A DNA stretch of 64,000 nt from an uncultured Nitrospiraceae bacterium (GTDB taxonomy: Bacteria; Hydrogenedentota; Hydrogenedentia; Hydrogenedentales; SLHB01). The notes under the pieces are model-generated. The model was not told the origin of the DNA and made no database searches. It saw only the letters and a program-made list of their open reading frames with translations. The stretch covers positions 125,146-189,145 of the forward strand of contig CAYOCT010000003.1 in assembly GCA_964402555.1 (NCBI GenBank). The letters are read 5' to 3'. Position 1 is the first letter of the stretch; every line of letters begins with the position of its first letter. A program made the position numbers and the translations under genes. Shown piece by piece: positions 1 to 49,057 of the stretch.

Positions 1-954
<954 letters not shown>

Positions 955-1216
955 ATGGTTTTCCATTTCTTATCCTCCGTGCTTTCATCGTCGTCTCACG
1001 ACGCAGACTGGGCCTGCTGTCAGACGCCGGTGCGCGCTCGTTCAAGAGAAATCAACGAATGGGTCGACTTTGTCCGCCCATATGAAATAACCTCGCGAAC
1101 GCCAACGTCCTTCTTGAGGCGTTCCGCGCGGCACAAGCTACTCGTTCATGATGGCAGACACTTTGGGGATCTCGGACTAGAACTTCTGCAACACGTGTGA
1201 TAGCCCGCTCTGCGCG

Positions 1217-5460: not shown

Positions 5461-5490
5461 TTGACATCTACGAAGGTCTTCGTATATAAT
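5461..5490 (+). promoter_or_regulatory. sigma70-type promoter of the blaI-blaR1 operon with an embedded inverted-repeat operator
   Basis: TTGACA at 5461-5466, TATAAT at 5485-5490 (18-bp spacer; TATATA with a 16-bp spacer is also possible). The palindrome TACGAAGgtCTTCGTA at 5469-5484 lies between -35 and -10. RBS AAGGAG at 5505-5510, ATG at 5519. Confidence 0.7.
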
Positions 5491-5518
5491 CCTTCCGCTG
5501 GCATAAGGAGACTACCCG

Positions 5519-7914: not shown

Positions 7915-8155
7915 CGGAACGACCTACCTTTTCAAACGACAGGATGACGGGATTTCACGGATAACAACGAACGTCGTTGGGCTATTGCCCGTAGCGCTAC
8001 GTGAACAACGGTATCAGAACCAGGTGTCATCGAGATGGGCCATGCTCGGATGATTGCCGCGTTAGTTGCTTCTCTCTATCGTGATAGCTATCCTGAGTAT
8101 CCTGTTATCCTGTCCACACAATTAGACTTGCCCGTAACAAGGGGGAGAAAGCGAT

Positions 8156-8794: not shown

Positions 8795-8924
8795 CGGTTT
8801 TCAGGGAAGAAACTCCCCCGTCGCGTCGATGGGCAGTACCCCGATCTCTACTACTTGGAACGGCGATGGAAAGCGTGGTCGCGCAATCCGAACGGATGAA
8901 CGTGATCGTGCCTGCCAATCAAGC

Positions 8925-8953
8925 TTGACACGCGGACCAAACCAAGGCATAAT
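8925..8953 (+). promoter_or_regulatory. candidate sigma70 promoter upstream of the DUF4143 ATPase gene
   Basis: TTGACA (8925-8930), 17-bp spacer, CATAAT (8948-8953). AT-rich context 45 bp upstream of the ATG at 8997. Confidence 0.45.
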
Positions 8954-8996
8954 TCTTACCAAATAAGGTACAAACTGGAAAGATAAGTTACCGGTC

Positions 8997-13780: not shown

Positions 13781-16336
13781 GTGGAAGCCCGCCGCGGGAA
13801 GAGGGGTGCGACGCATATGGCCGGTACGGAAGCGAGTAACGACGCGAACCGTTTAAGCATGGAAGACTTGAACGCCGGAGGGCGGTTCAAGGTCAAGAAG
13901 TATCTCAAGAGCGGCGGCATGGGCGACGTGTATCTCGCCGAGGACGACCTGCACCGCCGCGTGGTCCTCAAGACGATCCGCTCGGATAAGAACATGGACA
14001 CCGAGTTCCAGAAGCGGATCGAGCGCGAATGCCAGTTGCACGCCAAGGTCGGCACGCATCCGCACATCGTCACGCTGTACGACCGCACGACCATCCGCGA
14101 TCAGCAGGTCCTCATCATGGAATACGTCGACGGCGAGACCCTGCAGGAGCGGCTCGAATCGTACAAGAACCAGGGCAAGATCATCCCGTTGCACGACGCC
14201 CTGCTCATCGCGGCGCAATGCCTGGACGCGCTGTCGCGCATTCACGCGCACAAGATCGTGCATCGCGATATCAAGCCGGCGAACCTGATGCTGACGGTGG
14301 ACGAGGACAGCCAAATCTGCGCGAAGCTGATGGACTTCGGGATCGCGCGGCGCACGGAAGAGGAAACCCTGGCCACGTTCGCCACGGGCGACGGCAGCCG
14401 CGGTCCCGGCACGCCCGCCTATATGGCGCCCGAGCAGATCGATTCGCGCAAGTTCGGCCAGGTCTCCGAGGCAACCGACATCTATGCCGTCGGCGTCATG
14501 CTGTACGAGATGATCTCCGGCGCGACGCCGTTCACGGGAACGCTGACCGACGTCATGATCGGACACCTGACGCGCCAAGTGCCGCCCCTTCAACCGGCGG
14601 CGGGCGCGTTCGTGCCGGCCGAAGTCACCGACGTCATCAACATCGCGTTGAGCAAGAACCCCAAGAACCGATTCCCGAGCGCGAAAGCGTTTCGCGACGA
14701 ACTCAAGCAATTGCTCCAGGGCCAGGTGTCGCTCGATTCCGTAACGACGCCCGTGCAAGAGTTGAACTCGTTTCAGTTGGACGTCGACAACGCCATGACG
14801 CTGCCAACCTCGGGCCAGGCGCAAGCGCAGACCACGCCCGCGCCCGGACGCCTGGTTGCGCAGGCCCCGGCCGCTCCCGCGCAGCCGGTGGCGGAACGCA
14901 CGATGCTCTCCGGAAGCACGACGAACTGCGCGCCGCCGGCCCGCCGCAAAGGCGTGCTTGTCCCCGCGATCGCAGCCGTCGTGCTGCTCGGGTTCTGCGC
15001 GGTCTCCGGCGTGCTCATCTTCGATCGCCTGCGGCAGAAGCCCGAACCGGCGCCGGCCGCGCCGGCCACGCAGCCTGCGCCCGCCCCCGCGGCATCCGCG
15101 GAGCCCCCGGCGAAGGCGCCTGAAGCGCTATCGGGCGCGGCGCAGATCGAGGCCAGTTCGAAAGCCGAAGCCACGCTGAAAAATGCCAGCACCATGGAAG
15201 CCTCGCTGACACAAGAAGCGCGCGAACTCGCAGCGAAGGATGTCCAGGACGGCCACGACAGCATGGACCGCGGGCATAAGGCCTACGATTCTAAGGACTT
15301 CGTCAAGGCGCAGGAGGAGTACGACGCGGCCCTTGCCCATTTCAAGACGGCGTCCGAAATCCTGGCCAAGCGCGACGAAGCCAGCGTAGCGAAGACAAGC
15401 GCCGAAGCCGCGAAAGCGGCGCTGCCGCCCAATGCCGCGGAGGCAGCATCGAAAGAAACCGCCGACGCCGACGAGGCGTTCAAGAACGCAAACGACGCGT
15501 GGGATAAGCAGGATTTCGGCGCCGCGAAAGAGAAGTACGTGTCCGCCGAGGAGCAGTACGAGGCGGTGGCAGGCTTGGCCAACGGCTACACGGATGCGAA
15601 GGCCGCCAAGACGGAAGCGGAGTACGCCCACGAGAGAGTAGCGGGCAAGACTACGGATGCGGATATTCTCAAGTCGGCGAACGCGAATCTGGATCAGGGC
15701 GCCGAGGCCTGGGAGGCAAAGAACTACGACGCGTCGAAGAAGTTCTATAGCTTGGCCAAGAACCAGTATGACGATGCCGTCAAAGCGGGTGAAGCCCAGG
15801 CCGCCATGGCAGCCAAAGCGTCCGAAGCAGCCGAAAGCGTGAAGAAGTTGCAGGCGTCGGCCCAGTCCGCCAAGAACGCGATCCCGAACGAAGCCAAGGG
15901 CCTCGACGAGGTCAAAGCGGGCGACGCGGCCTTCGCCAAGGCCGAGGAAGCCATGGCCAGGCAAGACCTCCAAGGCGCCGGACAGCAGTATCAGACCGCG
16001 CTAAGCAAGTACGGCGCGGCGAGAAAGAAGATCGAGGCGGCGCGGGCGGCGCAACCGCCTGCCCCTGCCCCTGCCCCTGCAACGGCTCAAGCTGCCGCCC
16101 CGGCTCCATCGACCCAGGGAGGCAGCGCTTCGGAAGCGTTCTCAGCAGCCACGCAGAACCAGCCGCCTCCGCCCCCGCCACCTCAGCCCGCTTCGCCTCC
16201 GCCATCGCAATCGTCGGCTGCTCAGACGGTCACTTCGTCGCAGCCGGCGCCGGCGCCTCCGCCGCCATCCCAGCCCTCGCGCCCATCCGGTGGGAGTTCC
16301 AGAAGTGGCGGTCTTCGTAACAGGGCGGTGGACTAA
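13781..16336 (+). CDS. Ser/Thr protein kinase, membrane-anchored, with an extracytoplasmic Ala/Lys-rich repeat region and a Pro-rich tail
   Basis: Hanks motifs HRDIKPANLML, DFGIAR, GTPAYMAPEQ. TM helix VLVPAIAAVVLLGFCAVSGVLIF. Four approximately 45-aa repeats with a conserved (K/D)xxDFxxAxExYxxA core. C-terminal PAPAPAP/PPPPPQP low complexity. Confidence 0.85.
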   Translation: MEARRGKRGATHMAGTEASNDANRLSMEDLNAGGRFKVKKYLKSGGMGDVYLAEDDLHRRVVLKTIRSDKNMDTEFQKRIERECQLHAKVGTHPHIVTLYDRTTIRDQQVLIMEYVDGETLQERLESYKNQGKIIPLHDALLIAAQCLDALSRIHAHKIVHRDIKPANLMLTVDEDSQICAKLMDFGIARRTEEETLATFATGDGSRGPGTPAYMAPEQIDSRKFGQVSEATDIYAVGVMLYEMISGATPFTGTLTDVMIGHLTRQVPPLQPAAGAFVPAEVTDVINIALSKNPKNRFPSAKAFRDELKQLLQGQVSLDSVTTPVQELNSFQLDVDNAMTLPTSGQAQAQTTPAPGRLVAQAPAAPAQPVAERTMLSGSTTNCAPPARRKGVLVPAIAAVVLLGFCAVSGVLIFDRLRQKPEPAPAAPATQPAPAPAASAEPPAKAPEALSGAAQIEASSKAEATLKNASTMEASLTQEARELAAKDVQDGHDSMDRGHKAYDSKDFVKAQEEYDAALAHFKTASEILAKRDEASVAKTSAEAAKAALPPNAAEAASKETADADEAFKNANDAWDKQDFGAAKEKYVSAEEQYEAVAGLANGYTDAKAAKTEAEYAHERVAGKTTDADILKSANANLDQGAEAWEAKNYDASKKFYSLAKNQYDDAVKAGEAQAAMAAKASEAAESVKKLQASAQSAKNAIPNEAKGLDEVKAGDAAFAKAEEAMARQDLQGAGQQYQTALSKYGAARKKIEAARAAQPPAPAPAPATAQAAAPAPSTQGGSASEAFSAATQNQPPPPPPPQPASPPPSQSSAAQTVTSSQPAPAPPPPSQPSRPSGGSSRSGGLRNRAVD

Positions 16337-21465: not shown

Positions 21466-21961
21466 CAGCAAGTCCTCGTGATTTTGGATTTTGGATTTTG
21501 GATTTTGGATTGATGCACCGCCTCTGCGTAATCCGGCCTGAATACTCGAATTCGCGGGCATACCGAGAAACGTAATGCCGAATCGTGATTGCAGCGTTCT
21601 TCTTCCACCGCGAGGCAATCCAAAATCCAAAATCTAAAATCCAAAATCCCCTGCTTATTCCCCAATCTTCTCTGCCCAACTACCCCATGAACGGTCCTTG
21701 ACAAGACAAGCCAATTGCAGCGAGCGTGATGCTGAATCGTGGCAATGTACTCGTCCACCACCGCAAGGCAATCCAAAATCCAAAATCCAAAATCCAAAAT
21801 CCCCTGCTTACTCCCCAATCTTCTCTGCCCAACCGCCCCATGAACGGTCCTTGACAAGACAAGCCAATTGCAGCGAGCGTGATGCTGAATCGTGGCAATG
21901 TACTCGTCCACCACCGCAAGGCAATCCAAAATCCAAAATCTAAAATCCAAAATCCCCACCC
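21466..21961. repeat. intergenic tandem repeat block: about 3 copies of a ~150-bp unit, each terminated by a (GGATTTT)4 heptanucleotide microsatellite
   Basis: Near-identical units around 21651-21798 and 21804-21958, plus a diverged copy at 21513-21650. Heptamer tracts at 21481-21512, ~21616-21650, ~21768-21798 and ~21927-21957 (bottom strand GGATTTT, top strand CCAAAAT, with occasional CTAAAAT variants). Confidence 0.85.
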
Positions 21962-31930: not shown

Positions 31931-32423
31931 ACTTATGCGATAAAGATTTCTTTTCAGGATAGGCAATGCGCCGCGCGATATGGGGTCGGGGGCGTGGCGC
32001 GGGAGATGGAAGTTCGTGGGCCGCGCCGACGGAGATAGCAGACATCCTTTACATCGATCGGCATGCCCTCTCTCCGTCTTGGTCGCCACCTGGATAACGC
32101 CCGGTTACCCTTGACCGGCTTGGGATAGCGGGTTAGACTATTTCTACGGTAAAGTCTGCATGGCAAAATGGGCTTAGCCGCGCGAGCTTTGGGTGCGGCT
32201 CGGATTGTGGGAGACGGCGCAGCGGCCTTCCGGCGCGCCGGAGGACAGGTGAATAGAGGAATAGGGCCACCCATGCAGACATACATGGCGTGCGCTCCGG
32301 CAAACATGAATCGTCTGCTATGCCTCGGAATGCGCGGAGGCCGGGGTCTAGAGTGATATACGTGCAGGGAGGCCCGTGTTCCGCGGGCGCCCGAGGGCAG
32401 GTTGTTGCCGAGGAGGAAAGGTC

Positions 32424-35400
32424 ATGCGTACGTCATCAGTGTTCCGTGGGGCGATCCTTGTCATTCTAGCGTCGATCGGGGGCATCGGATGCCCCTGGAT
32501 AGCGCCCAAAGCACAATTCGCGGCGTACCCGCAAAGCGGTATGGCCCCGCTCGAGGTCCAATTCACGGACCAGTCCGTTCCAGGCGTCGTTCCAATCTCG
32601 CAGTGGGCATGGGACTTTGGCGATGGCGGAACGAGCCGCGCTCGCAATCCCAAGCACACGTACTCCGCTTCGGGATCGTACACGGTCTCGCTTACAGTCA
32701 AGGGTTTCCTGGCCCAGAGCACGGCGGCCATACAGGACCTCATTCAGGTTTCGGGCGAGGGCGAAGGGGAAGGCGAGGGTGAGGGCGAGGGCGAGCAGCC
32801 TGTGTATTTTGTGGTCGGCGATCCGCTGAGCATCGCCCATGGCGCCTACGTGCTGCCGTTGACCAACGCGGACGATATCGCCCACGCGCGGGACGTTATT
32901 GCGGACCCGGCCAACACGGACATGCACATCGTGGTCGCGCGCATCGATCGCGGGGGAACCGAGGGAGAGTATACCAACTGCGATCCATACCATCCCGGAA
33001 ACGTCTGGTCGTGGCGCGTGACGGAATTCGTCGGGTTTGCCGACAACACCATCGAGATCCTGGATGGTTGGCCGCAATATGTCGAGGACAATCTGGATGC
33101 GTGGATGCAGGCTACCGGCGGCGAGATCGGATTCTGGAACTGCCGAGTCTTGTACGAATTGACGGACGGATGCCCCGGCGCCGAAGGCGAAGGCGAAGGC
33201 GAAGGCGAAGGCGAGGGCGAAGGCGAGGGTGAAGGTGAAGGCGAAGGCGAAGGCGAGGGTGAAGGCGAAGGTGAAGGCGAAGGCGAAGGCGAAGGCGAAG
33301 GCGAAGGTGAAGGTGAAGGCGAGGGTGAAGGTGAGGGTGAGGGCGAAGGTGAAGGTGAAGGTGAAGGTGAAGGCGAGGGCGAAGGTGAAGGTGAAGGTGA
33401 AGGTGAGGGTGAGGGTGAAGGTGAGGGCGAAGGCGAAGGCGAGTTGTTCTTGATCGGCGTCTTCCCTGCGGCGGGTTCCGGGGCCGGCGGTACACTTGTC
33501 TATATCCCCGGTGGCGGATTTGTTAGCGAGGGAACCACGCGCGTGCTGTTCGGCGACGCCGACGCGACCAACGTGCTTGTGGGTTCCTCCGATGGTGTCG
33601 ATTATGTGCAGTGTGTGACCCCGCCGCACGCGCACGGTACGGTGGATGTCACCGTCATCAATCCCGATGGCGCAAGCGCCTATCTGCCCGCCGCCTTTAC
33701 GTATCAGGACGCGCCTGCGGTGGCGTTCATCGAGCCGAATGCGGGGTCGTCGTTAGGCGGGCAGCATGTGACCGTCCGAGGCTCGGGTTTCATGAGTTCC
33801 GGCGCAACCAGGGTTACGTTCGGTGGCGCTGACGCAACGGAAGTTACCGTCATCGACGACGGTTACAATCCGCCGTTTGTCACGTGTGTCGCGCCACTGC
33901 ACGCGCCAGGCGTCGTCGACGTCACGGTCATCAATCCTGACGGGTTGCGCGGGACGCTCGCGAGGCGCTTCACGTATTTTTCACCGGTTTACATTCAACG
34001 CGATGGCCGCTATGTGACGAATGCGTCGGTCGGATACGAGGGCGGGCCGTTCTATCCCGACAAGGTGCCCTATGGCCTAAGGAATAGCCACACGGCAGCG
34101 CTAATGTACGACCTGAAGGTCACGAATGACATCCTGCAGATCGAGTTCCCGATGGGGCTTCCGCCCGTGCCCGGAATAACCGGTACCGTTGCCAGGGATA
34201 GCTATGGCACAACCTTCTTGGCGGATCTCGCGGACGATGTCGTCAACCGGCTCACTCCCGGAACATACCCGACCGGACTCCAGTTAACGAACGTCACGTT
34301 CCAGCAATTTGCTCAAGCCGAAGACATCTACCTGGACGTCCTGGATCGGAGCGAGCCGGGGCTTGAGGTCACTCCGAGGGAGGATTTCTATGCGGCGGGA
34401 CCTGTCGGCGGGCCATTCGAGCCCCTGGCGAAGATCTACCGATTCTACAATCCGGACCCGACACCGGTTGCGGTCAGCGCGTTCCTCGTGAACACGGACC
34501 GGTATCTCTCGCTTGACCCGTCGCGGTACGTGCAGGGCGTCGAAACAACCCTGGATGCGTTCCAGGCCATCGACGTTGGCGTCTATGTCGATCAGACGCT
34601 GACCGGCAGGCTCGATGCAACCGAACTTACCAACCAGCTCCGGTTCTACAACGCAACGCTGGGTAAGGTGGCCGCCGCCCGGATGATCTATGTGACCGTG
34701 TCTGAAGACGACTTCAGCGGCCTGTCGTTCGTCGACGTGCTTAACAACATAGGACAGAACACGGCATTGCTGGGCATCGCTCCGGAACCCGGTCTCCCCG
34801 AAGATGCCGACTACAATGGCCCAGGATGGTCTCCTGGGGATGCCCTGTCCGTCCATGTCAGCGGCAATGGAATGCCCGACGCAACCACGGAACTCAAGTT
34901 GATCGAGAATGTCCTCCATGATCGGTCCTTCTCCCTGCCGAACGGACTGACCCACGCGCGCGTGGCCAGCGCATGGCATGCCAATCGGCAGCGTCTTGCG
35001 CAGGACTTGGCCCCTGTGTGGGACATGTTCGAGGTCTTGCTGCCGGGGTTCCAGGATTTCCTCACCGGTATGATGATCATTGGCGACGGAGAGATGGATC
35101 TTTCAGACCCAAGCGTCGTGCGTTGGACCGGTTCGGCGGGCTTCGTTCAGGGGCTCCTGCATTCGTTCCGAGAAGTCTTCGGTATCGAAGACATCGACCT
35201 CAGCCATTACATTCGCATGCCGGAGTACTTCGCGTTCTATGGCGACGCGGACGGCGACGGCTGCAAGAACTACTTCGAGTACGTACGGAACTCGTGGGAC
35301 TTTCCCTACGATGTCATCGCGCTCGATCCCGCGTTTAACAGTGAGAACCTCTGCATGATCGATGTTGTTCCCTCGTCTAGGGCAGGAGGCACTTTCATCG

Positions 35401-38400
35401 GCTATCCGGAAGGGCCTTTCGAACCTGAGTCGTATTCGTACACGTTGACCAACCTCGCTGCCTCAGCCAGGACGTACGAGATCCGAAACAACTCTTATCT
35501 TGGGTTCAGGATGCCGGGGACGGAGATTGGAAGCCACTTTGTCCAGGGAACGCTGGAAGCCTATCAGGCTGTCGCTATCGAGGTGTACGTGGATGCCAAT
35601 GTGGCACGCACTCTGTCGGCTGGACGAAGTCACTCCGATTCCGTCCGCGTGATCAGTTCGGGCGGTTCGCTGTTTATCGGCGATAATCCCCCGTTCTTCC
35701 TCGACCTACTTGCGCCGGGAACAAGTTCCTTGCGCGTCACACCCGAGACCGATTTCCAGACCACGTTTCAGGCGGGCAGTTCGCTGGCGAGCACGTGCGC
35801 AACCTATGCGCTCGAAAACGTGACGTCAGCGACGATACGGTACGCGGTAAACCGCGACCATGCCGGAATCGCGTTCAAGCCTAGCCCGGGCGGCGTGCTT
35901 ACCAACGTCCTGTCGGGCGCCTTGGGCGCGATGCAATCCGTCGATATCCGCGTGTATCTCGATCCGTCGTCGCCGAATTGGAACTCGCCCGGGGAATACA
36001 GCAACGCCGTGACGTTCGTAGACGGGACGTTGAACGCCGTGGCGGCCACGCGGGGCGTCTATGTGGAAGTGACGCCCGCGCAGCCCGTGCTCGATTACGA
36101 TTTCACCGACTACTTCAACCGGGTACGCAACAATTCATTCGTCGCCTTGCTGCCCCCCGAGTATGGAAGCATCATGCTGATGCTGGATCCGAATACCGCG
36201 GACTTCAACGGCCCTTCGTCAATGAAGCTGAGTCCGCTCCAGCTCAATATTCAAGGCAACGGCATGCTGGATTGCCTGCACGAACTGGCGCTTGTCCAGG
36301 CGGTGCTAAATGACCCGAACTTTTCGCTGCCGAACGGCCTCACGCATCAGCGCGTCATCGACGCTTGGAACCAGAATATTGGCCAGTTTGCTGCGGATGT
36401 CGGCAGCTACTGGCCGATACTCGGTGCGTTGATGGACGGCCTGCCTCAGATTCTCAACGGCATGATGATCCTGGGAGACGGATCGGCGCAGACCTCGGAT
36501 CCCAACATGGTGATTTGGGACGGTTCCGCTGGATTCATCCAAGCGTTGATGAGCCTTCTCGGCGGGTACATCACGAATCCGACGATCGACCTCGACACCT
36601 ATGGCCGGTTGCCGGAGTTCTTCTCGAAAGATGGCGATGCCGATGGCGATGGATGCTCGAACTATGAAGAGTTCCTCGCCTACGGGTCCAATCCCGCGGT
36701 CTATGTCGCCAACGCGCTGAACCCCGACGTTCATCCGAGTGACTGTGCCGGTGAGGGCGAAGGTGAAGGTGAGGGTGAAGGTGAGGGTGAAGCCGCGTTC
36801 TGCGATTTCTGGCCGCTGGCAGTCGGGAATCAGTGGAACTGGAATGATGGCCAGGACAACGCCGAGACCTTCGAGATAGTCGATTTCTTCGTGGCGAACG
36901 GGTTCCGTGCGTGGCAGATGTACAACATGTTCTATGGGTTCGTCACAACGACCACGGTGCAGAATCTCGTCTTCGTGGACGGGTGGCTGTACGTTACGCC
37001 GGACATTGCGGACCTCGATGCGCTGCCCGCGATCACGGGCAGTCTCAAGGGATGGGTTCCCGAGGTCATGACGTGTGGCCAGTCGTTCTACTCGCCGTTG
37101 TTCGGCAAGACGATTACTCCGATGTGCTCGGGCGATACACTCTCCCTGTCGGTCGAAGGTGTGCCTGAGCCGCTGGTGCTCGAGCGCGGTCTCGGTCCGA
37201 TGAACTTCGGCGGGCTGGGCGGCACATACTCGCAGACGATTGTCGGCGGATGCGACACGGACACGGAGGACTTCAGCGCAGACCCCGGCGAGCAGCCGTT
37301 GAGCGGCGGCTCGTTTCCGATGGTCCAGTGGGTAAGCGGCGAGACGAGTACGGGTACGATCGATCTGAAGCCCGCAAGTCCCACCGTTCAGGATGTCCTC
37401 TACTTCAATCTTCCCACGAGCGTGTTCGGGCTTGCGGGTCTTGCGGAAGCCGCCGCGGGCGGCCATCCGAACCTCGTAGTCGACGCGCTTACCCATCGCG
37501 TCGAGTTGCGGTTCGTTCCGCCGGCCGCGCCGCCGGCAATTACGCTGTGGGATCCGGTGTGCGGTATGGAAGGCCACTTCGGCCCCATCGAAGCGGGCGA
37601 CTGGGAGTTCTTCTGCGACAATGCCCTTGTGCCCTTCTCGATGACGTTCCACGTCAATCCGGCAGAAGGCCAGGGCCAAGTCGCTTGGATTCCGGGAGAA
37701 ACGAGTCCAGGCGCATGGATGGTTCTGCCTCCGGCGCCCGTCGAATCGAGTCCGGTACGGTTTGAAGGCCCCATTCCCCTTCAAGGCAACGCGTGCCTCG
37801 CGACGGTCGCGGCGGGAGGACGTCCCGAACTCCATATCGATCAGGCCGCGCACACCATCGAATTGTGGTACCGCCCGCCCGCGCCGGACGCCTGCATCGA
37901 GGTCTTCGATCCCGTGTGCGGCCTGCGCGGCACGTTTGGATACTTGGAGGCCGGCACGTGGACTTTCTATTGCACGAGTCCGTTCTCGACGTTCAATCTT
38001 TCGTTCGAGGTCGCGCCCGCGGGCGGCGGTCCACCGGCGCACATGTTCTGCGACTACCTGCGCAGTCTCCTGAGCAATCAGCTCGTGGCGATGCTGCCCT
38101 CGGAATTCGCTGGCTCGATATGGCAACTTACGCCGGAGAATGTGGACTGGAACGGGGAATGGTCGATTAGCGCGGACGGCATTGCAACCTTGGGCTACAA
38201 TGGCAACGGCTTGCTCGACTGTTACCACGAGATGAAACTCGTCGAAATCGTCCTGAACGATCCTAACTTCCGGCTGCCCAACGGACTGACGCATGCACTC
38301 GTGCAGCAGGCTTGGGACACGAACGAAGCGCAGTTTGCCCGCGATGTAGGTTCGTACTGGGCGTTGATGCGGGCTCTGGTCGACGGATTGCCGCAAATCG

Positions 38401-41400
38401 CTAACGCCTACATGATCCTGGGCGACGGTTCCGCCACGCAAGACCCCGTTACAGGCGAAATCGTTTCCGAAGGTTCCGCGGGCCTGGTCCAGGCATTGAT
38501 GTTGACGCTCGGCTCGAACATTACGAACGCCCACATCGACCTCGCCAACTACGGGCGTTTGCCGCAGTACTTCTCGAAGTATGGCGACGCGGACGGCGAT
38601 GGATGCTCGAACTACGAAGAATTCCTGGCCTATGGTTCTGATCCCGATCGGTACGCTGCCAACGCGCTCAATCCCCGCGTGCATCCCATTTCATGCAGTG
38701 GGGAAGGAGAGGGCGAGGGAGAAGGAGAAGGCGAGGGTGAGGGTGAGGGTGAAGGTGAAGGTGAAGGTGAACCGCAAGGACTGTTCTGCGGCTACATCGA
38801 TCAGCTTCGCTCGAACTCGCTGCTTCAAATGCTCCCGGCCGAGTACCAACCGTTCCTGAACCTGATCGTGCCGGAAGCAGTCGATATCAACGGCAGCGCG
38901 TGGCTCGATCAGAACGGCAGCGCCACCTTCGATCTCCAAGGCAACGGCATGTTCGATTGCGTCTACGAGTTGCGGCTTGTCGAGGCAGTCATGGCTGACC
39001 CGGCGTTTGCGTTGCCCAATGGCTTGACCCACGCTTTGGTCCAACAGGCGTGGAACACCAGCGAGGCCCAGTTCCAGGCGGATATCGGCAGCTACTGGAG
39101 CTTGGCCGGCGCGCTTGTGCCCGGGTTGAAGGAACTCCTCAAAGGCTACATGTTGCTCGGCGATGGCTCGGCCGATCTCTCCGATCCGAATCACATTACG
39201 TGTCAAGGTTCGGCCGGGTTGATCCAGGCGCTGGTTTTCCTGATTGGCGACTATGCGATGAATCCCAACATCGACCTGAGCCAGTATGGGCGTCTGCCGG
39301 AGTACTTCTCGAAGGACGGCGACGCCGATGGCGACGGATGCTCGAACTACGAAGAGTTCCTCGCCTATGGTTCGGACCCGTTGGTCTACGTGGCCAACGC
39401 GCTCGATCCGAACGTTCATCCGGCGCTGTGCAAAGGCGGATCCGAAGGCGAAGGCGAGGGAGAGGGAGAAGGTGAAGGTGAAGGCGAGGGAGAGCCGCAG
39501 GGACAGTTCTGCGGCTATATCGATCAGCTTCGTTCGAACTCCCTCGTCCAGATGCTTCCCCCGGAGTATCTGCCCTATCTGGATCTGATCGTGCCGGAGG
39601 CAGTCGATATCAACGGCAGTGCGTGGCTCGATCAAAACGGCAGCCCGACCTTCGACCTCCAAGGCAACGGCATGCTCGATTGCGTTTACGAGTTGCGACT
39701 CGTCGAAGCCGTCATGGCTGACCCGGCGTTTGCGTTGCCCAATGGCTTGACCCACGCTTTGGTCCAACAGGCGTGGAACACCAGCGAGGCCCAGTTCCAG
39801 GCGGATATCGGCAGCTACTGGAGCTTGGCCGGCGCGCTTGTGCCCGGGTTGAAGGAACTCCTCAAAGGCTACATGTTGCTCGGCGATGGCTCGGCCGATC
39901 TCTCCGATCCGAATCACATTACGTGTCAAGGTTCAGCCGGGTTGATTCAGGCGGTGGTCTTCCTGATCGGCGACTATGTAGCGAATCCCAACATCGATCT
40001 GAGCCTGTACGGCCGCCTGCCGGAGTACTTCTCGAAGGACGGCGACGCTGATGGCGACGGCTGCTCGAACTACGAAGAGTTCCTCGCCTACGGTTCGGAC
40101 CCGCTGGTCTACGTGGCCAACGCGCTCGATCCGAATGTCCATCCGGCGTTGTGCAAAGGCGGATCGGAAGGTGAAGGCGAAGGCGAGGTCGTCCCGCTGT
40201 GCGACTTTCTGCCCCTCGCCGAAGGGAATGAGTGGAACTTCAATATACCTCTGATGGTGGGATCTGGCGGGCGCTTGGCAGTGACGGACCAGACCGAGTG
40301 GAATGGCGTCCGCGTGTGGGAGGTCGAAGAGGACACCTACGGCGACTTGACGACTTCTTCGTCGCTCTTGTACATGGCCTTCGTCGACGGATGGCTTTGG
40401 GCAACGAGCGCCGCCAATGACATCTACCAGCTTCCCGCGATCACGGGCAGTTTTCGACAGATGCTTCCCGAGACTGTTGTCAGCGGACAATCGTATTATC
40501 TTCCCGCGTTGTCCGTGACCGTCACGACGGCCCTGGAAAGCCCCGATGTCCTGAGCGCCCAGGTGCAGTACATGGGGCTGACCTTGAGCATACTCCTGGG
40601 CCGAGGCCTTGGATTCATCGACAGCGCTGTCATAGACGTGACCAGCGCGAGCATTGTGGGCGGCTGCGGCGACGGATGGAGCGGCAGCGGTGAGGGCGAA
40701 GGAGAGGGAGAAGGCGAAGGCGAGGGCGAGGGAGAGGGAGAAGGAGAAGGAGAAGGAGAACTTCCCAAGACGTTCTGCAACTACTTCCAGATGGTCCACG
40801 ACAACACCCTGCTCCAGGTGCTCCCGTCCGAGTATTTCTTCATCACGAACCTGTTGTCGCCCGATCAAGCTGATCTCAACGGAGACTCGTACGTGCAGTT
40901 GAATCCGTCGACCGAGTTCGGCATCAACGGCAACGGTATGCTCGATTGCGTCTACGAGATGAAGCTGATCGAGAAGGTCCTCAACGATCCGGAATTCGAC
41001 CTGCCCAACGGGTTGACCTATGCGCTCGTCCAGGCCGCATGGAACAAAAACGCTGCGCAGTTCGCGGCGGATGTCGGGCAATACTGGGGCTTGCTCGGCT
41101 CGCTTGCGAACGGCTTGCCGCAGATCCTCAACGCGTACATGATTCTCGGCGATGGTTTCGCGCAGCAGGATCCTTCGACCGGACGGATCGATTGCACCGG
41201 ATCGGCGGGATTGATCCAGGCCATCATGCTGTTGCTCGACGGCCAAATCGCCAACAGCCACATCGATCTCGATACGTACGGGCGCCTGCCGCAGTATTTC
41301 GCGAAGGACGGCGATGCCGACGGCGACGGTTGCACGAACTACGAAGAGTTTCTTGCGTACGGTTCCGATCCGGCGCTGTACGCAGCCAACGCCCTCGACC

Positions 41401-41942
41401 CGAACGTGCATCCCGATGCGTGCTCCGGTGAAGGCGAAGGAGAGGGCGAGGGTGAAGGTGAGCTCCTTGCAGTGTGCGACTACTGGCCTCTGGCCAAAGG
41501 CAACTACTGGCGGTGGCACACCGGTATGATTGACGCGGATGGCGGCGAGATTGCCGTGACCGATTCGAGCGTTGTCAACGGATTCAAGACGTGGGAAGTG
41601 AAGCTCTACGCTGACACAATCGCCGGGTTGTTGCCTCAACTGGACGTCTTTGTCGTCTTCGTCGACGGCTGGCTCTACGGCACGGATGTGCGCGCCGACC
41701 TCGACGGCTTGCCCGTCGTCGGTGGCGGGATGCAGCGCATCTGCCCGCAGACCATGCAATCCGGCCAAACGTTCACGTCGGATTACTTCGGCTGGCCAGT
41801 GACGGTCAGCGGCGGCGCATCTACGGTCCTGGTTTCGGTCAGTGGGTTCGGACCACTGTTCATCTTGTCCCAAGGCCAGGGACCGACAGCCGGTATACTC
41901 GGCGCTTTCGATCCTCCGGTTATCGTCGGCGGGTGCGAGTAG
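32424..41942 (+). CDS. giant (3172 aa) modular cell-surface lipoprotein: PKD domain, two IPT/TIG domains, repeated Ca-binding (DADGDG) modules, (Gly-Glu)n linkers
   Basis: AGGAGG RBS then ATG at 32424 ([23 protein letters not shown], lipobox). PKD-like segment (WAWDFGDGG…HTY…GSYTVSLTV). An 88-codon pure (GE)n run at ~33178-33443 and about 8 shorter GE linkers. IPT-like domains ([17 protein letters not shown]…[10 protein letters not shown]). Six copies of an approximately 215-aa module ending …[21 protein letters not shown]…NALNPxVHPxxC. Three copies of an approximately 160-aa module ([16 protein letters not shown]…). Two copies of an approximately 90-aa module. The ORF track starts at an upstream in-frame Met at 32376. 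Confidence 0.85.
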
Positions 41943-41966
41943 CGCGGTCAAGAGTCGCGACCATTT

Positions 41967-42011
41967 GGAGTGCGGCGATGCTTCGCCGCTTTGGCTGCGG
42001 CCGGTACAGTG
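41967..42011 (+). repeat. REP element (hairpin GCGGCGAtgctTCGCCGC) immediately 5' of the RAYT gene
   Basis: Perfect 7-bp-arm hairpin followed by TTTGGCTGCGGCCGGTACAGTG. A near-identical copy lies at 42719-42765 on the other side of the RAYT gene. Confidence 0.7.
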
Positions 42012-42015
42012 ATCC

Positions 42016-42591
42016 ATGGGCAATGCTGACAACTTGAATGTCGTGCCATGGCCGCATGCGCCGACACACCAATTGTCGGACGCCGGAACCTATTTCGTGA
42101 CCTCCGGCGCCTATCGTAAAGATCACTTCTTTCGCGGCGGTAAACGCCTTTCGGTGCTACAACGTGGGCTTCTTAAGCTCGCTGCCCGTTTCGGATGGCG
42201 GGTCGAAGCGTGGGCCGTCTTTTCGAATCACATCCACTTCGTAGCGCATTCACCAGAGGACGGAGCGGAAAGCCTAAGGGAACTTCTCACTATCCTTCAC
42301 CGAGAGACAGCGATTTGGGTCAACAAACTCGACAAGTCCCCGGCCCGCAAGGTATGGCACAACTTTCGTGAGACTCGCCTGACCTTCGAGAAGTCCTACC
42401 TGGCCCGTCTCAACTACGTCCATCAGAATCCGGTCAGGCATGGCCTCGTGCCGATTGCTTCACGATACCCCTGGTGTTCCGCGACATGGTTTGAACAGGT
42501 GGCCACTCCGGCCCAGGTACGAACGATTTACAGTTTCAAGACCGACTCGCTCACGGTCTATGACGAATACGATGTCTGCGACGAATGGTAG
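42016..42591 (+). CDS. REP-associated tyrosine transposase (RAYT; IS200/IS605 TnpA-like, Y1 HUH family)
   Basis: 191 aa with an HxH motif (FSNHIHFVAH) and a distal catalytic Tyr region (…SYLARLNYVHQNPVRHGLV…). Flanked on both sides by REP hairpins. Confidence 0.75.
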   Translation: MGNADNLNVVPWPHAPTHQLSDAGTYFVTSGAYRKDHFFRGGKRLSVLQRGLLKLAARFGWRVEAWAVFSNHIHFVAHSPEDGAESLRELLTILHRETAIWVNKLDKSPARKVWHNFRETRLTFEKSYLARLNYVHQNPVRHGLVPIASRYPWCSATWFEQVATPAQVRTIYSFKTDSLTVYDEYDVCDEW

Positions 42592-44135: not shown

Positions 44136-47100
44136 CTATGGGCGATGCCGCGCAACGGCGCGAGCGCCGATCGCGCCGGCCAGCATCATCGCCGCGATCA
44201 GGGCCGCCAGCCCTCCTGCCGGCAGCGCCGGCCCGACCATGAACGGCGCGCCAGGCCCGACGCCGGGAGCCAGGTGGCCTTCCGAGTCGGAAGCGGTCGC
44301 GGGCTGGATTCCGACGCTGATGTTGCCTTCACCGGCGATCGCTTCGATGCTGATCACATAGGTATTCGCGTCGATCATGGTGACGGCCGGAACACCCGTG
44401 GCGGTGCCGGTGGCGTTCAGGATCACATCGGAAGCATCAAGCGTCACGGTCTCGGCGCCCGTATACGTGACCAGGTACGTGACGGGGCCTGAGGTCGTGT
44501 AGTACGCCGAAGGCGGGCTGAGGCTGACCACCGGACCGGTAGATACAATCGTAAATACCTCGCCGCCGGTGAATGTACCATTGCCCGGGCTGAACCCTCC
44601 GAGGACATGGCCGCTGAAATCGAGAATCGAATCGTTGTCGATGACATCGAGCCGGATCGTGCCTTCCCCTGTGCCTCGATCGACGTTAACGATGAAGCTG
44701 TGGAGGCCGCCCGACACGCTCGCGACAAAGGCGCCGCTGACGTCGCCGGTGGTCGTGAGCGCGAAATCCGAATACGGCCACGACGTATCCACGCCGAAAA
44801 CATTGTCGGTAAATGTAACGAGGAACGTCACATAGGGCGCGTTGGTCGGGCTGGCGCCGAGCCGCGTTACGGAGGCGACCATGGGCGGTACGAACAGGCC
44901 CCAGAGTTCGCGGCCGTGAATGTACTCGGCCGCGCTGAAGTACAGACGGCCACCCGCCGCAGCCAGGTTGCGCGGCGCGGAACCCGCCGGACCGGCGTTG
45001 ATGTCCGTTACCAGCGCAGTGCCTTCCTCCGTATTGTTGGTCTGCCACAGCTCGGTGCCGTGCGCGCCGTCATCGGCGGCGAAGTACACGAGTCCGCCGA
45101 GAGTCGCGAGGTTCCGGGGCGCCGAACTGCCTGGGCCGGCGTTGATGTCTTTCAGCAACAGGGTCCCGTAGGTGGTGCCGTTGGTGTGCCACAGTTCGCG
45201 GCCGCTGACGCCGTCGTTGGCCGCGAAGTAGATGGTTCCGTCGATACTCAACAGCCCTTCGGGCGCCCCGGAATTCGATCCCGGCCAGATATCCTTGACC
45301 ATGACGGTGCCATAATCCGTGCCGTCGCTTTTCCAAAGCTCGATGCCGTGCACGCCGTCATTCGCGGCGAAATACGGCTTGCCGTTGCGTTCGACCATGC
45401 CTTGGGGCGACGAGTCCGCCGGCCCGGGGTTGATGTCCATCACGAGAACCGTGCCTGGGGTCGTGCCGTCCGTGCGCCAGAGTTCGACGCCGTGGGTCGT
45501 GTCGCGCGCGGAGAAGAAGACCATCCCGTTCGCCAAGGTGAACAACTGCGGCAGGGAATCCCCGGCGCCCGTGTAGATGTCTCTCAGCATGAACGTGCCC
45601 GCGTCGGTGCCGTCGCTTCTCCAGGGCTCGATACCGTTCGTACGATCGTTGGCCGCGAAGTACAGGACGCCGCCGCACGAGGCCAGCAACTGCGGACTCG
45701 ACGACTGCCCGGCGGCCGGAGCGATGTCCTTGACCAGCACCGTGCCCTCCGGAGTGCCGTCGCTCTTCCAGAGTTCGTAGCCCGCGTTCGTGTCGTAGGC
45801 GCTGAAGAAGAGCTGATTGCCCACCACCGTCAGATAGGTCGGGAACGAATCGCTGGTCCCGGGCCGGATGTCCTTGACCAGCACGGTGCCGCTCTGCGTG
45901 CCGTCGCTCTTCCAAAGCTCCGCGCCTCGCGTGCCGTCGTTCGCGGTGAGATATAGCACGCTGTTCATGACGACCAGATAGTTCGCGTTCGAACTGCTGG
46001 AGCCGGGATAGATGTCCTTGACCATCGTGGTGCCGCCGGCCGTGCCGTCGCTTCGCCACAACTCGACCCCGTGAACGCCGTCGTTCGCGCTGAACATCAG
46101 AATTCCGTTCAGGTCGGTCAAAGACTGCGGCAAGGAATCCGAGGTCTCCGGACGGATGTCCGACACGAGGACCGTTCCGCCCGCCGTGCCGTCCGTGCGC
46201 CACAGTTCGATTCCGTGGGATCCATCGTTCGCGCTGAAATACATGACCCCGTTCATCGGGGTAAACTGGCGGGGAAGCGAATTGCCGGAGCCCGGCAGGA
46301 TGTCGCGGACCTGCGCCGTCCCTGCGGCGGTGCCGTCGCTCTTCCAAAGTTCCGTGCCCGCGGCGCCCGTGCTTGCGCTGAAGTAAAGTTCCGAACCAAG
46401 TGCCTCGATGCCTTGCGGATCGCCGTTGGCGGTGCCCGGATCGATATCGTACACGAGCGCCGTCCCTTCGGCGGTGCCGTCGCTCTTCCACAACTCGTAC
46501 CCGGTGATGCCGTCCGTGGCATTGAAATACACGGCCCCGCCGATCACCGCTAGATCGGACGGATTGGAATCGGGCACGCCCGCGTTAATATCCGCGACAA
46601 GGACCGTGCCCTCTGCGGTGCCGTCGCTCTTCCAGAGTTCGACGCCCTCGGTGGCATTCAGCGCGGCGAAGTACAAATTCGCTCCGGCCACAACGAAGTA
46701 CTGCGCGTCGGAGCTCTCGCTGCCTTCATTAATATCCTTGACCATCGCCGTACCGGCGTCGGTGCCGTCGCTCGTCCAGAGTTCGTAGCCGTGCGCGCCA
46801 TCGTCGGCTTTGAAGTAGGCCTTGCCGTTGAGCTCGGTGAGGTACTGCGGATACGAGGACGCCGTCGGATGAATGTCTTTGACCATCGTTGTACCGGCCT
46901 CAGTGCCGTCCGTCTTCCAGAGCTCGAAGCCGTGCGTGCCGTCGTTGGCCACGAAGTACAACACGCCGCCAATCACGGTCAGCGAACGCGGGGACGACGA
47001 AATAGGACCCGGATTGATGTCTTTCACGAGCGCCGTGCCCGCATTGGTGCCATCGCTCTTCCAGAGTTCGTAGCCATGAACCCCGTCCGTGGCCATGAAG

Positions 47101-47648
47101 AACACAAGGCCGTTATACGCTTCCAGGTTCTGCGGGAAGGACCCGGTGCTTCCGGGAGCGATGTCGCTGACTTGCATGGTGCCTTCAGGGGTTCCGTCGG
47201 TCTTCCACAATTCCTGGCCGCCCACCGCGTCGATAGCCCTGAAGTACATTGTGGATCCCACCACCGTGAATTCCCACGGCTCCGATCCGTTAACGCCGGG
47301 ATTGATGTCTTTCACGAGTTGCGTGCCAAGCGCGGAACCGTCAGAGCGCCATAGCTCTGTTCCGGTGATGCCGTCCGTCGCGCTAAAAAGGAGGAAGCCG
47401 TTCATCAATGTCATCAACTGCGGATTGGCCGGCGCGGGCGCGGCGGCGCCGGAGTTGATGTCCTTAACGATGTCCGCCGCGGTGATTGCTCCACCAACCG
47501 ATGGGAGCAGCGTCAACAGGAGCACACATGCCGCCACGGCGCCACGCCGCAGGCGAAGTTCCTTCTTGCCAGACCATACCGGGATCTCGCCATGCCGCTC
47601 TCGCGCGCTCGTGACCGACTTCATCATTCGAACTCCTGTGCTGACCAT
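44136..47648 (-). CDS. ELWxxDGT-repeat protein (about 20 repeats) with signal peptide and C-terminal sorting-signal-like tail
   Basis: Repeats of the form …ELW(K/R)(S/T)DGTxxGTxLVKDIxPG… of about 50 aa, throughout. N-terminal signal (AVAACVLLLTLLPSVGGA). C-terminus GPALPAGGLAALIAAMMLAGAIGARAVARHRP. The exact start (47648 or the Met at 47627) is uncertain. Confidence 0.85.
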   Translation of the reverse strand: MVSTGVRMMKSVTSARERHGEIPVWSGKKELRLRRGAVAACVLLLTLLPSVGGAITAADIVKDINSGAAAPAPANPQLMTLMNGFLLFSATDGITGTELWRSDGSALGTQLVKDINPGVNGSEPWEFTVVGSTMYFRAIDAVGGQELWKTDGTPEGTMQVSDIAPGSTGSFPQNLEAYNGLVFFMATDGVHGYELWKSDGTNAGTALVKDINPGPISSSPRSLTVIGGVLYFVANDGTHGFELWKTDGTEAGTTMVKDIHPTASSYPQYLTELNGKAYFKADDGAHGYELWTSDGTDAGTAMVKDINEGSESSDAQYFVVAGANLYFAALNATEGVELWKSDGTAEGTVLVADINAGVPDSNPSDLAVIGGAVYFNATDGITGYELWKSDGTAEGTALVYDIDPGTANGDPQGIEALGSELYFSASTGAAGTELWKSDGTAAGTAQVRDILPGSGNSLPRQFTPMNGVMYFSANDGSHGIELWRTDGTAGGTVLVSDIRPETSDSLPQSLTDLNGILMFSANDGVHGVELWRSDGTAGGTTMVKDIYPGSSSSNANYLVVMNSVLYLTANDGTRGAELWKSDGTQSGTVLVKDIRPGTSDSFPTYLTVVGNQLFFSAYDTNAGYELWKSDGTPEGTVLVKDIAPAAGQSSSPQLLASCGGVLYFAANDRTNGIEPWRSDGTDAGTFMLRDIYTGAGDSLPQLFTLANGMVFFSARDTTHGVELWRTDGTTPGTVLVMDINPGPADSSPQGMVERNGKPYFAANDGVHGIELWKSDGTDYGTVMVKDIWPGSNSGAPEGLLSIDGTIYFAANDGVSGRELWHTNGTTYGTLLLKDINAGPGSSAPRNLATLGGLVYFAADDGAHGTELWQTNNTEEGTALVTDINAGPAGSAPRNLAAAGGRLYFSAAEYIHGRELWGLFVPPMVASVTRLGASPTNAPYVTFLVTFTDNVFGVDTSWPYSDFALTTTGDVSGAFVASVSGGLHSFIVNVDRGTGEGTIRLDVIDNDSILDFSGHVLGGFSPGNGTFTGGEVFTIVSTGPVVSLSPPSAYYTTSGPVTYLVTYTGAETVTLDASDVILNATGTATGVPAVTMIDANTYVISIEAIAGEGNISVGIQPATASDSEGHLAPGVGPGAPFMVGPALPAGGLAALIAAMMLAGAIGARAVARHRP

Positions 47649-47941: not shown

Positions 47942-49057
47942 TTAGTCCACCAATTGAAGGCCGATCTCGTTGTTCATCTCGAAGCCCAACGCAGTAGGAC
48001 GAATCGCCAGCCCATCGTCCTCGATGAGACCGCGGGCGGCGAGCGTGGCGAGGTCAGTTCCGAAGTCCGAGAGGAGTGCTGTGCCGAAACGCCGCGCGTA
48101 AGCCGAATGGCGAATGCCGTCCCGAAGGCGCAGATGCTGGATCACGGTCTCGACGCGAATCTCGCGCGGGCTTAAGCGCAACGCTTCCATCTTGCCGCCG
48201 GGATCGCGAAGGTACGCTTCAAGCGCGGCGTGGTTGCGCGCGCGCACGCCGTCGAGAAACGAGTAGGCCGCGGGACCAAGTCCCGCGTAGGCTTCGTTGT
48301 GCCAGTAGATCAAATTGTGCCGGCACGTGTAACTGGGCCGCGCGAAGTTCGAGATCTCGTAGCGTGTGAAACCCTCGAGCAGCGCGTCCGCCCGTCGATA
48401 GAGCGCAAGCCACGTGGCCTCGTCCACGGCCTCGCCCGCGCGATCGCCGAAGGGAGTTCCTGACTCATAGGTTAATCCATAGGTGGAGATATGCGTAGGT
48501 TGATAATCCTGCGCCTCGATCAACGTTGCGTCCCAGGCATGGACCGGCATTGCGCCGAAGATCAGGTCCATGCTCCAATTGTCGAAACGTTCTGCGATAC
48601 ACGCGCACGCGCGGCGGGCGGTGTCGGCATCGTGGCGCCGGCCGAGATAGCGAAGCGCGCCGTCGTCGAAGCTCTGCACACCGAGACTCACGCGGTCGAT
48701 CCCGAGCGCGCGCCACGCTTGCGCCAGAGGCGCGGTAACGTCGTCGGGATTGGCCTCGATCGTCTTTTCGGCTCCTTCGAGATCGAAGCGCGCATGCAGG
48801 GCATCGAGGATGCGTTCGAGTTGCCTCGCTTCGAGGAGCGAGGGCGTCCCGCCTCCGAAGAACACGGTTCCGGCCTCGCGCGGCCCCTCGAACGCCGCGA
48901 TCTCGTTGCAGACCGCTGCGACGAAGGCCTCAGGCGGCGCTTCGGGCACGGCCTGGCTTACAAAATCGCAGTAAGGACAGCGCGTCCTGCAAAAGGGAAT
49001 GTGAAGGTACACGCCGAGGCGATTTTGGATTTTGGATTTTGGATTTTGGATTGACAT
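47942..49057 (-). CDS. hemW: radical SAM heme chaperone / coproporphyrinogen-III-oxidase-like HemW(HemN) family protein
   Basis: CxxxCxxC radical-SAM motif in LHIPFCRTRCPYCDF, then a HemN-like core. N-terminal codons 3-12 (SIQNPKSKIQN) are encoded by a (CCAAAAT)4 heptamer tract at 49021-49052. An alternative TTG start is at 49087. Confidence 0.8.
   Translation of the reverse strand: MSIQNPKSKIQNRLGVYLHIPFCRTRCPYCDFVSQAVPEAPPEAFVAAVCNEIAAFEGPREAGTVFFGGGTPSLLEARQLERILDALHARFDLEGAEKTIEANPDDVTAPLAQAWRALGIDRVSLGVQSFDDGALRYLGRRHDADTARRACACIAERFDNWSMDLIFGAMPVHAWDATLIEAQDYQPTHISTYGLTYESGTPFGDRAGEAVDEATWLALYRRADALLEGFTRYEISNFARPSYTCRHNLIYWHNEAYAGLGPAAYSFLDGVRARNHAALEAYLRDPGGKMEALRLSPREIRVETVIQHLRLRDGIRHSAYARRFGTALLSDFGTDLATLAARGLIEDDGLAIRPTALGFEMNNEIGLQLVD

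Follow-up and report, generated by a model that had tools for sequence, protein, structure and literature searches.

Introduction

Giant modular surface proteins are a kind already well known among bacteria, and three groups of described systems come closest to the protein reported here. The staphylococcal Clf and Sdr proteins carry a long, pure acidic dipeptide stalk of Ser-Asp (SD) repeats, encoded by short and imperfect DNA repeats, between the anchor and the ligand-binding domains; they are Gram-positive proteins with a C-terminal LPXTG sortase anchor and a single SD region, the Ser residues of which are glycosylated. LapA, SiiE, MpIBP, and other RTX adhesins are very large and acidic proteins in which Ca2+-dependent, immunoglobulin (Ig)-like stalks bear distal ligand-binding modules, and they are substrates of type I secretion, end in C-terminal RTX repeats, and have no lipobox. 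Cellulosomal scaffoldins are surface-anchored, multi-module proteins that combine cohesin/dockerin modules with Pro/Thr-rich linkers. In the current work, we describe a 9.5-kb gene for a giant modular protein in a 64,000-nucleotide stretch of DNA (hereafter the window) from contig CAYOCT010000003.1 of an uncultured bacterium, deposited as Nitrospiraceae and assigned to the Hydrogenedentota in the GTDB lineage. Its product combines a lipobox-like leader, known extracytoplasmic domains, and four kinds of repeated module (A–D) with pure Gly-Glu (GE) dipeptide runs.

Like the Clf and Sdr proteins, the giant protein has a pure acidic dipeptide stalk encoded by imperfect DNA repeats; unlike them, it has an N-terminal lipobox-like sequence, its Gly-Glu repeat offers no hydroxyl group to glycosylate, and runs of that repeat join domains generally, at eight places in the protein. 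With the RTX adhesins it shares a very large size and a strongly acidic composition, whereas its disordered GE linkers contrast with their rigid, Ca-bridged Ig junctions, no RTX/HemolysinCabind match was obtained in Pfam or NCBIfam, and its C-terminus is a copy of module B. The likeness to scaffoldins lies in the low-complexity linkers, in the Ca loops of module A, which resemble the EF-hand-like loops of dockerins, and in the existence of relatives with dockerin-like tails and of one with a cohesin. However, the giant protein gives no Pfam Cohesin or Dockerin match (whole protein at E ≤ 0.1; single modules at E ≤ 10), its module A measures about 220 residues with a large helical core, and its linker chemistry is a different one. 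What is new in the searchable record is the use of repeated, pure Gly-Glu tracts both as a tether and as a universal linker, together with the module A family.

Architecture of the giant protein

The gene (32424..41942, + strand, as are all features of the giant protein given below) is a single unbroken open reading frame (ORF; 32376/32424–41942) of 3,172 codons plus a stop, and a Shine-Dalgarno sequence, GAGGAGG, can be read at 32410..32416, 7 nt 5′ of the ATG at 32424. The product has a mass of 337.8 kDa and an isoelectric point (pI) of 4.05, with 437 Asp and Glu residues against 115 Lys and Arg residues. The order of its parts, as resolved by self-BLAST, profile hidden Markov models (HMMs), and alignment of the unassigned regions, is signal peptide-Cys23, PKD, (GE)7, BP74_N, (GE)43, TIG, TIG, D, D, A1, D, D, A2 in the first half, followed by (GE)7, B1, C1, C2, A3, (GE)12, A4, (GE)8, A5, (GE)3, B2, (GE)12, A6, (GE)6, and B3; the members of the D-D-A and B-C-C-A blocks adjoin one another with no GE runs between them. 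Such an ORF cannot be explained by chance, given its 3,172 codons, its domain matches, the low ratio of non-synonymous to synonymous substitution rates (dN/dS, 0.08) between modules A4 and A5, and the presence of homologues elsewhere.

The leader (32424..32492) is a signal peptide ending in a lipobox-like GGIGC sequence, which satisfies the PROSITE pattern PS00013 (Cys23, Arg2) and departs from the strict lipobox consensus; the corresponding box of the closest relative described below, L-V-G-C, satisfies both. The giant protein is thus probably a lipoprotein as far as its leader can tell, and the N-terminal lipobox that had been read from the sequence at the outset stands under the broader pattern and fails under the stricter one.

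Pfam domains were called above the curated gathering thresholds, and NCBIfam was also scanned. The PKD domain (32502..32753) is recognized by PF18911 (PKD_4) with 54.6 bits against a cut-off of 27, and also by PF00801 (38.7 bits, cut-off 23.5). Between the first two GE runs lies a BP74_N domain (32796..33185; PF23621, 60.1 bits against 27), the match of which spans profile positions 2–112 of 114; a sequence search of the PDB with this domain returned no significant relative. Two IPT/TIG domains follow (33444..33983), matched by PF01833 in two stretches with 78.6 bits against 20.9, and self-BLAST shows them to be 57% identical to one another. No recognizable enzyme domain was detected by Pfam or NCBIfam, even with single modules searched at E ≤ 10. 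Weak matches annotated as "TrAA12-like" and "serine-rich protein" fall on the GE runs and were rejected as low-complexity artefacts.

An extracytoplasmic character is suggested by the low pI, by the PKD and TIG domains, and by the Cys residues that are conserved in every A and B module of the giant protein. The cytoplasmic proteins encoded in the window, unlike the giant protein, have ordinary pI values, so the acidity belongs to this protein and not to the proteome, and a halophile-type proteome was ruled out as its source. From the features of the leader, the domains, and the loops of module A, we infer a lipidated, surface-located, Ca2+-binding protein.

Much of this design had been anticipated in the original prediction, which was made from the nucleotide letters and their translations. 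The central claim, a 9.5-kb gene for a modular protein with pure GE linkers, is borne out by the unbroken 3,172-residue ORF and by the motif, Pfam, and HMM matches; the PKD and the two IPT/TIG domains score above their cut-offs, and the copy numbers given for the repeated modules were likewise correct. The BP74_N domain and four D units had been missed, and the description of the protein as "built from Ca-binding modules" was overstated, as Ca-loop motifs occur in module A only.

Gly-Glu runs as tether and linkers

Eight pure (GE)n runs, with n = 7, 43, 7, 12, 8, 3, 12, and 6, contribute 98 dipeptides or 196 residues (6.2%) to the giant protein. The (GE)7 linker at 32754..32795 separates the PKD and BP74_N domains, and the (GE)43 tether at 33186..33443, encoded by four synonymous hexamer types, leads to the TIG pair. 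Further runs of (GE)7 (36750..36791), (GE)12 (38700..38771), (GE)8 (39447..39494), (GE)3 (40170..40187), (GE)12 (40689..40760), and (GE)6 (41427..41462) are distributed over the second half. The longest run, initially counted as 88 codons, therefore comprises 43 dipeptides or 86 codons, and the shorter linkers, put at about eight, number seven.

The DNA beneath the longer runs is a patchwork of three to six kinds of synonymous hexamer per run, with no more than five identical hexamers in succession, and TRF reports 81–90% matches. At the protein level, not one amino-acid interruption is found among the 98 dipeptides of the giant protein or the 37 of a paralog at the edge of the window. Mixed synonymous codons beneath an unbroken peptide repeat indicate that the purity of the runs looks selected rather than left behind by a very recent expansion. 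The earlier suggestion that the linkers are prone to slippage and hence polymorphic in length is weakened by the same mixture of hexamers, which makes the DNA less slippage-prone than a perfect array would be. Run length in the leader does differ among family members (7 dipeptides in the giant protein, 37 in the paralog, and 19 in the closest relative); a metagenome scan with BP74_N for a comparison of GE lengths between strains gave no matches.

Outside these proteins, three more Hydrogenedentes loci (L006, L008, and L018) have GE runs of 17–27 dipeptides after their module A, and no GE run longer than five was present among the best 150 cluster representatives of the module A family. A literature search returned no bacterial pure (GE)n inter-domain linker or tether, and no relevant hits on BP74 either; the one natural Glu-Gly repeat that the searchable papers describe belongs to human RPGR.

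Module A, a family with EF-hand-like loops

Six copies of module A, each about 220 residues long, were located at 34689..35357 (A1), 36066..36749 (A2), 38034..38699 (A3), 38772..39443 (A4), 39495..40166 (A5), and 40761..41426 (A6). The six ~215-residue modules of the original prediction were recovered by motif search, self-BLAST, and a profile HMM, with independent E-values (i-E) of 1e-98 to 1e-119 (1.3e-98 for A1). The A4 copy was modelled with high confidence (predicted local distance difference test, pLDDT, 90.3; predicted template-modelling score, pTM, 0.88), and a large helical core is predicted between two loops. No solved structural relative of the module was found, and neither the giant protein nor twenty relatives contain a Pfam or NCBIfam model for it, apart from the short TSP3_bac motif.

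The module carries the motifs DxNG, NGxxDxxxE, and DxDxDGxxNxxE, and it ends in DADGDGC.NYEEF, which fits a 12-residue EF loop with D, D, D, N, and E at ligand positions 1, 3, 5, 9, and 12. In an alignment of 110 near-full-length A domains, the pattern D-x-D-x-D-G-x-x-N-x-x-E is 93–100% conserved, with helices predicted on either side. Columns conserved at 80% or more comprise D38, N40, G41, N58, G59, D62, E66, L74, G84, A93, N97, G106, G130, and D131, as well as D184-A-D186-G-D188-G189-x-x-N192-x-x-E195. Judged by its residue pattern, the segment D184–E195 resembles a canonical EF-hand loop, and D38–G41 together with N58–E66 look like a second loop split by a hairpin. No His, Ser, Cys, or Lys reaches 80% conservation in these domains; because the conserved residues are nearly all Asp, Asn, Gly, and Glu in loop motifs, the pattern argues for a Ca-stabilized binding or structural domain rather than a catalytic one.

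TSP3_bac (PF18884) matches the whole protein with 48.1 bits against a cut-off of 25, but a single A module with only 18.8 bits; no Pfam EF-hand match was obtained in the giant protein, and alignment of the C-terminal loop with the EF loops of calmodulin lacks significance (E 0.017). The thrombospondin-type-3/EF-hand-like motif noted at the outset is supported by the whole-protein match and, weakly, by the calmodulin alignments. The loop does fit the 12-residue EF loop with a predicted helix, but it makes up just a part of a larger domain.

With module A as query, one relative was retrieved from 5.8 billion proteins in a word-indexed search. A HMMER profile built from the six copies and this relative was then scanned against 1.84 billion cluster representatives, giving 290 matches at E ≤ 1e-3, 152 at E ≤ 1e-10, and 52 at E ≤ 1e-30. 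The near-full-length domain is single in 107 of 108 proteins, and 55 of 109 such domains begin within 60 residues of the N-terminus. PKD or Ig I-set stalks come next in these relatives, or the domain is fused to C25, M12B (reprolysin), or M6 peptidases; among the best 150 proteins of the family, 72 end in a transmembrane (TM)-plus-basic tail and 26 in a duplicated dockerin-like tail. A single, often N-terminal A domain with a stalk and an anchoring tail corresponds to an anchored surface protein that carries its working head at the distal end. The six full copies of the giant protein are an extreme within the family, in which one representative (P0002) carries about ten shortened A-like units.

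The tails themselves were also inspected (P0001–P0060 and loci L006, L008, and L018). One type is a duplicated, dockerin-like Ca-loop sequence, 'D.D.D..I.LSELLRVIQFFNSGGYH.C..EDGFCPG', and the other consists of a 'GSLP' motif, a TM helix, and an Arg/Lys tail. Both lie outside Pfam and NCBIfam in the members tested and may be undescribed anchoring signals.

Within the giant gene, the A copies are 60–77% identical in nucleotide sequence, with the exception of A4 and A5, which are 91.8% identical and repeat with a period of 723 nt. These two differ by 42 synonymous and 13 non-synonymous substitutions, and the resulting dN/dS of 0.08 shows that purifying selection maintains the A copies. Along one 225-nt stretch the two do not differ at all, a pattern suggestive of gene conversion.

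Modules B, C, and D

Module B occurs at 36795..37256 (B1), 40188..40688 (B2), and 41463..41939 (B3, at the C-terminus), and the three ~160-residue modules previously recognized at these sites are confirmed by HMM (i-E 1e-62 to 1e-67). The module is all-beta and has Cys residues near both ends: in all three copies, one lies at residue 3–5 (CDFWPLA) and another in an IVGGC motif 1–9 residues from the C-terminal end. It is very rare, having been found only in the closest relative and three metagenome loci besides the giant protein. Alignments of three or seven B sequences gave no match among 5.8 billion proteins, nor was there a PDB sequence match; B2 gave a DUF6923 match below the cut-off (E 0.016, Pfam at E ≤ 10). 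In the metagenome locus L024, module B adjoins a Pfam Cohesin domain (29.1 bits against a cut-off of 24.1) and a TSP3_bac motif.

Modules C1 and C2 (37323..38027; residues 1634–1749 and 1753–1868) correspond to the third module reported earlier in two copies, and self-BLAST supports that report (41% identity, E 4e-18). The D units are beta units of about 115 residues that occur as pairs ahead of A1 (D1 and D2, 33993..34685, with no Pfam match) and A2 (D3 and D4, 35379..36065, from self-BLAST and alignment). Pfam searches at E ≤ 10 gave nothing useful for B, C, or D, and D1-D2 and C1-C2 had no significant PDB sequence match.

The paralog and relatives in other genomes

The 5′ part of a paralogous gene lies at 1..966 on the − strand, with an ATG at 966 or 954, and runs off the window. 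It encodes a signal peptide with Cys (VFVGC), a PKD domain, (GE)37 at 415–636, a CHRD domain at ~94–399 (81.8 bits), and an FGE-sulfatase-like start; the last was assigned by motif recognition and by the equivalent domain of the closest relative, there being no Pfam match on the fragment. No further A or B module was detected in the rest of the window by profile HMM.

When module A was scanned against one genome per GTDB species, 21 loci were retrieved, 14 of them labelled Hydrogenedentes/Hydrogenedentota, six Nitrospirales/Nitrospiraceae, and one an unclassified metagenome-assembled genome (MAG). The closest relative is an unannotated 2,784-residue ORF at 1698–10049 of locus L003 (contig CAIYET010000485.1, Candidatus Hydrogenedentes MAG MJ-time_bin-1056). 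It shares the signal peptide-Cys-PKD-(GE)n leader, at 51% identity to that of the giant protein, and has seven GE linkers (n = 19, 24, 9, 7, 5, 7, and 4), one A module (47% identity), two B modules (31–37%), one of which is C-terminal, and one D-like unit. It differs from the giant protein in that rhodanese, GLUG repeats, FGE-sulfatase, and a right-handed beta-helix make up most of its cargo, in having one A module instead of six, and in lacking TIG and BP74_N domains. The leaders of the paralog and the giant protein, in turn, share 46% identity, and the two comparisons together support the family of lipobox-PKD-(GE)n proteins proposed in the original prediction. On these alignments, the leader and GE-linker design looks like the chassis of a restricted lineage for varied cargo. 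The bacterium that carries the giant gene is itself probably a member of the Hydrogenedentota.

Other features of these loci deserve mention. A second ORF in L003 (2–1309), located 5′ of the giant gene there, starts inside a (GE)24 run and closes with (GE)12 ahead of a Cys-Cys motif, which leads into a hydrophobic helix with a basic tail, an ending which indicates that GE linkers also precede C-terminal anchors. In two Nitrospirales MAGs, proteins encoded at L005 3–2537 and L009 6848–10030 combine tandem A modules with a region 43–46% identical to the CHRD part of the paralog, and another gene with module A comes after each of them.

Proposed function of the giant protein

The reading that we favor, to which we give about an even chance, is that of a lipid-tethered, polyanionic, multivalent, Ca-dependent cell-surface binding protein of adhesin-like character. 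On this model, the protein would be exported by Sec, as its signal peptide suggests, and lipidated at Cys23, as the lipobox pattern suggests, with its N-terminus held in the membrane. The PKD domain, (GE)7, BP74_N, and (GE)43 would form a pedestal and a flexible, strongly negative tether, the (GE)43 portion of which is estimated at ~30 nm if fully extended; its composition may keep the protein at a distance from the anionic cell surface. Two TIG domains, identified by Pfam, and four D units, assigned more tentatively, would build an Ig-like stalk, beyond which the six A modules would serve as working heads, helical and each organized around two EF-hand-like Ca2+ loops. Strung together with the beta modules B and C by shorter GE spacers, these heads could bind with avidity, and the putative ligand would be repetitive or particulate, for example a polymer, detritus, or the surface of another cell.

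Several observations weigh against this reading. Pfam leaves about three quarters of the protein unmatched, and modules A, B, C, and D are without a characterized homologue. The lipobox-like sequence G-I-G-C, with Gly at −3, fails the strict consensus [LVI][ASTVI][GAS]C, and the reading calls for the transfer of a lipoprotein as large as 338 kDa to the outer surface of a diderm envelope. The gene neighbourhood gives no functional hint, and the wider window is ordinary chromosome. Finally, enzyme-like domains (rhodanese, FGE-sulfatase, and beta-helix) ride on the same chassis in L003, so the GE-linked chassis is not specific to adhesion.

In a different proposal, possible though rather unlikely, the protein would be a covalent display scaffold for nutrient acquisition (a "covalent cellulosome"), its leader and GE linkers serving as a general means of mounting several working domains on the cell, and modules A, B, and C would be substrate-capturing or enzymatic cargo instead of adhesion heads. 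The L003 protein, with the same leader and GE linkers around rhodanese, GLUG, FGE-sulfatase, beta-helix, one A, and two B modules, speaks for such a scaffold, the window paralog carries CHRD and the FGE-sulfatase-like start, and module A is fused to C25, M12B, and M6 peptidases elsewhere; yet the giant protein itself has no recognizable enzyme domain, the conserved residues of A are those of Ca loops only, and the proposal overlaps with the adhesin-like reading, from which it differs mainly in the ligand and the reason for binding it. The modules might instead bind each other, A as a dockerin/EF-hand-like partner of a cohesin-like B on neighbouring molecules, so that a Ca-dependent network or S-layer-like coat would assemble as an envelope or matrix. 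Such self-assembly would accord with the adjacency of A and B, which is seen three times in the giant protein (A2-B1, A5-B2, and A6-B3) and once in L003, with the position of B next to a Cohesin domain and a TSP3_bac motif in L024, and with the duplicated dockerin-like Ca loops at the ends of many A-family proteins. It is nevertheless improbable, considering that A occurs without B in nearly all of the 290 representatives, that B occurs without A in L024 and L025, and that the giant protein matches neither the Cohesin nor the Dockerin model of Pfam.

The GE runs invite two further ideas. They could be processing sites in a secreted polyprotein, cut for example by a Glu-specific endopeptidase, from which single A, B, and C modules would be released or displayed; the joining of unrelated domains by GE runs in L003, the Cys residues near both ends of B, which could staple a free-standing domain, and the purity of the runs at the protein level are compatible with this. 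No protease gene lies nearby, however, the D-D-A and B-C-C-A blocks are joined with no GE runs, the short (GE)3 is unlikely as a dedicated cleavage site, and no precedent was found in the literature searched, and we regard the polyprotein as highly unlikely. Very unlikely as well, in our estimate, is a broader conception in which the runs are functional parts of an undescribed display system of Hydrogenedentota-like bacteria: a lipobox-PKD-(GE)n leader would present interchangeable cargo, the GE tracts would act as cut sites or as cation-responsive polyanionic springs that lengthen or collapse with Ca2+, and A would be a new Ca-binding fold. An assembly artefact, in which the assembler chained smaller genes or miscounted repeat copies, would have to draw on the probable metagenomic origin of the contig, on the 225-nt stretch without differences in A4 and A5, and on the low-complexity DNA of the GE runs. 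Against it, the frame is intact across 9.5 kb, the copies are distinguishable from one another (60–77% identity in general and 91.8% for A4/A5), the dN/dS of A4/A5 is low, and an independent MAG contains a 2,784-residue ORF of the same design. With distinguishable copies, an intact frame, and that dN/dS, an artefact is hardly credible, and at most the number of A copies or the GE lengths may be off.

Genomic neighbourhood

The giant gene stands alone. A 700-nt intergenic region precedes it, with genes for a histidine kinase and a GDSL lipase upstream; a small basic ORF and an AAA_14/DUF4143 gene lie downstream. Antisense ORFs of 792, 412, and 699 residues (36306–42032, − strand) were rejected as genes, as their relatives match only via the conserved sense strand. 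Neither Rfam nor a tRNA scan detected anything in the window, and promoter and terminator scans stayed at chance level.

Elsewhere in the window, a secreted fibre-like protein (1970–3595, − strand; pI 5.5) has a Peptidase_S74 chaperone and UspA1-like repeat motifs, a secreted leucine-rich repeat (LRR) protein of pI 4.4 is encoded at 10557–11837 (+), and a secreted 1,170-residue protein, also of pI 4.4, with weak beta-propeller matches is encoded at 44136–47648 (−); the genome appears rich in surface proteins. An 851-residue protein (13781–16336, +) combines a Ser/Thr kinase domain, a TM segment, Ala/Lys/Glu-rich helical repeats, and a proline-rich tail, and it accounts for an AT-skew spike of 0.28 at 14–16 kb. 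Tandem heptamers, GGATTTT/AATCCAA, are repeated in 4–5 copies at five sites (21480–21511, 21605–21957, and 49021–49052), three of which lie within a 153-nt unit (2.3 copies, 97% identity) and one at the 5′ end of a HemN-like ORF; this heptamer family is intergenic.

Significance

Members of the Hydrogenedentota have yet to be cultured, and next to nothing has been described of their surface biology. Two genome papers on the phylum make no mention of adhesins, lipoproteins, PKD domains, S-layers, or the outer membrane, and literature searches turned up nothing relevant on Hydrogenedentes surface proteins. If pure GE tracts are a lineage habit of the Hydrogenedentota and of some Nitrospirales MAGs, they would represent a natural linker of new chemistry, one that is flexible and polyanionic and offers no hydroxyl groups; such a linker would be of interest to protein engineers and cell-envelope researchers alike. 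Module A, with 290 cluster representatives, a confident predicted structure, and no database model, is a candidate for a new Pfam family. For the organisms themselves, a 338-kDa multivalent surface protein may offer a handle on how Hydrogenedentota cells attach to or harvest particulate matter.

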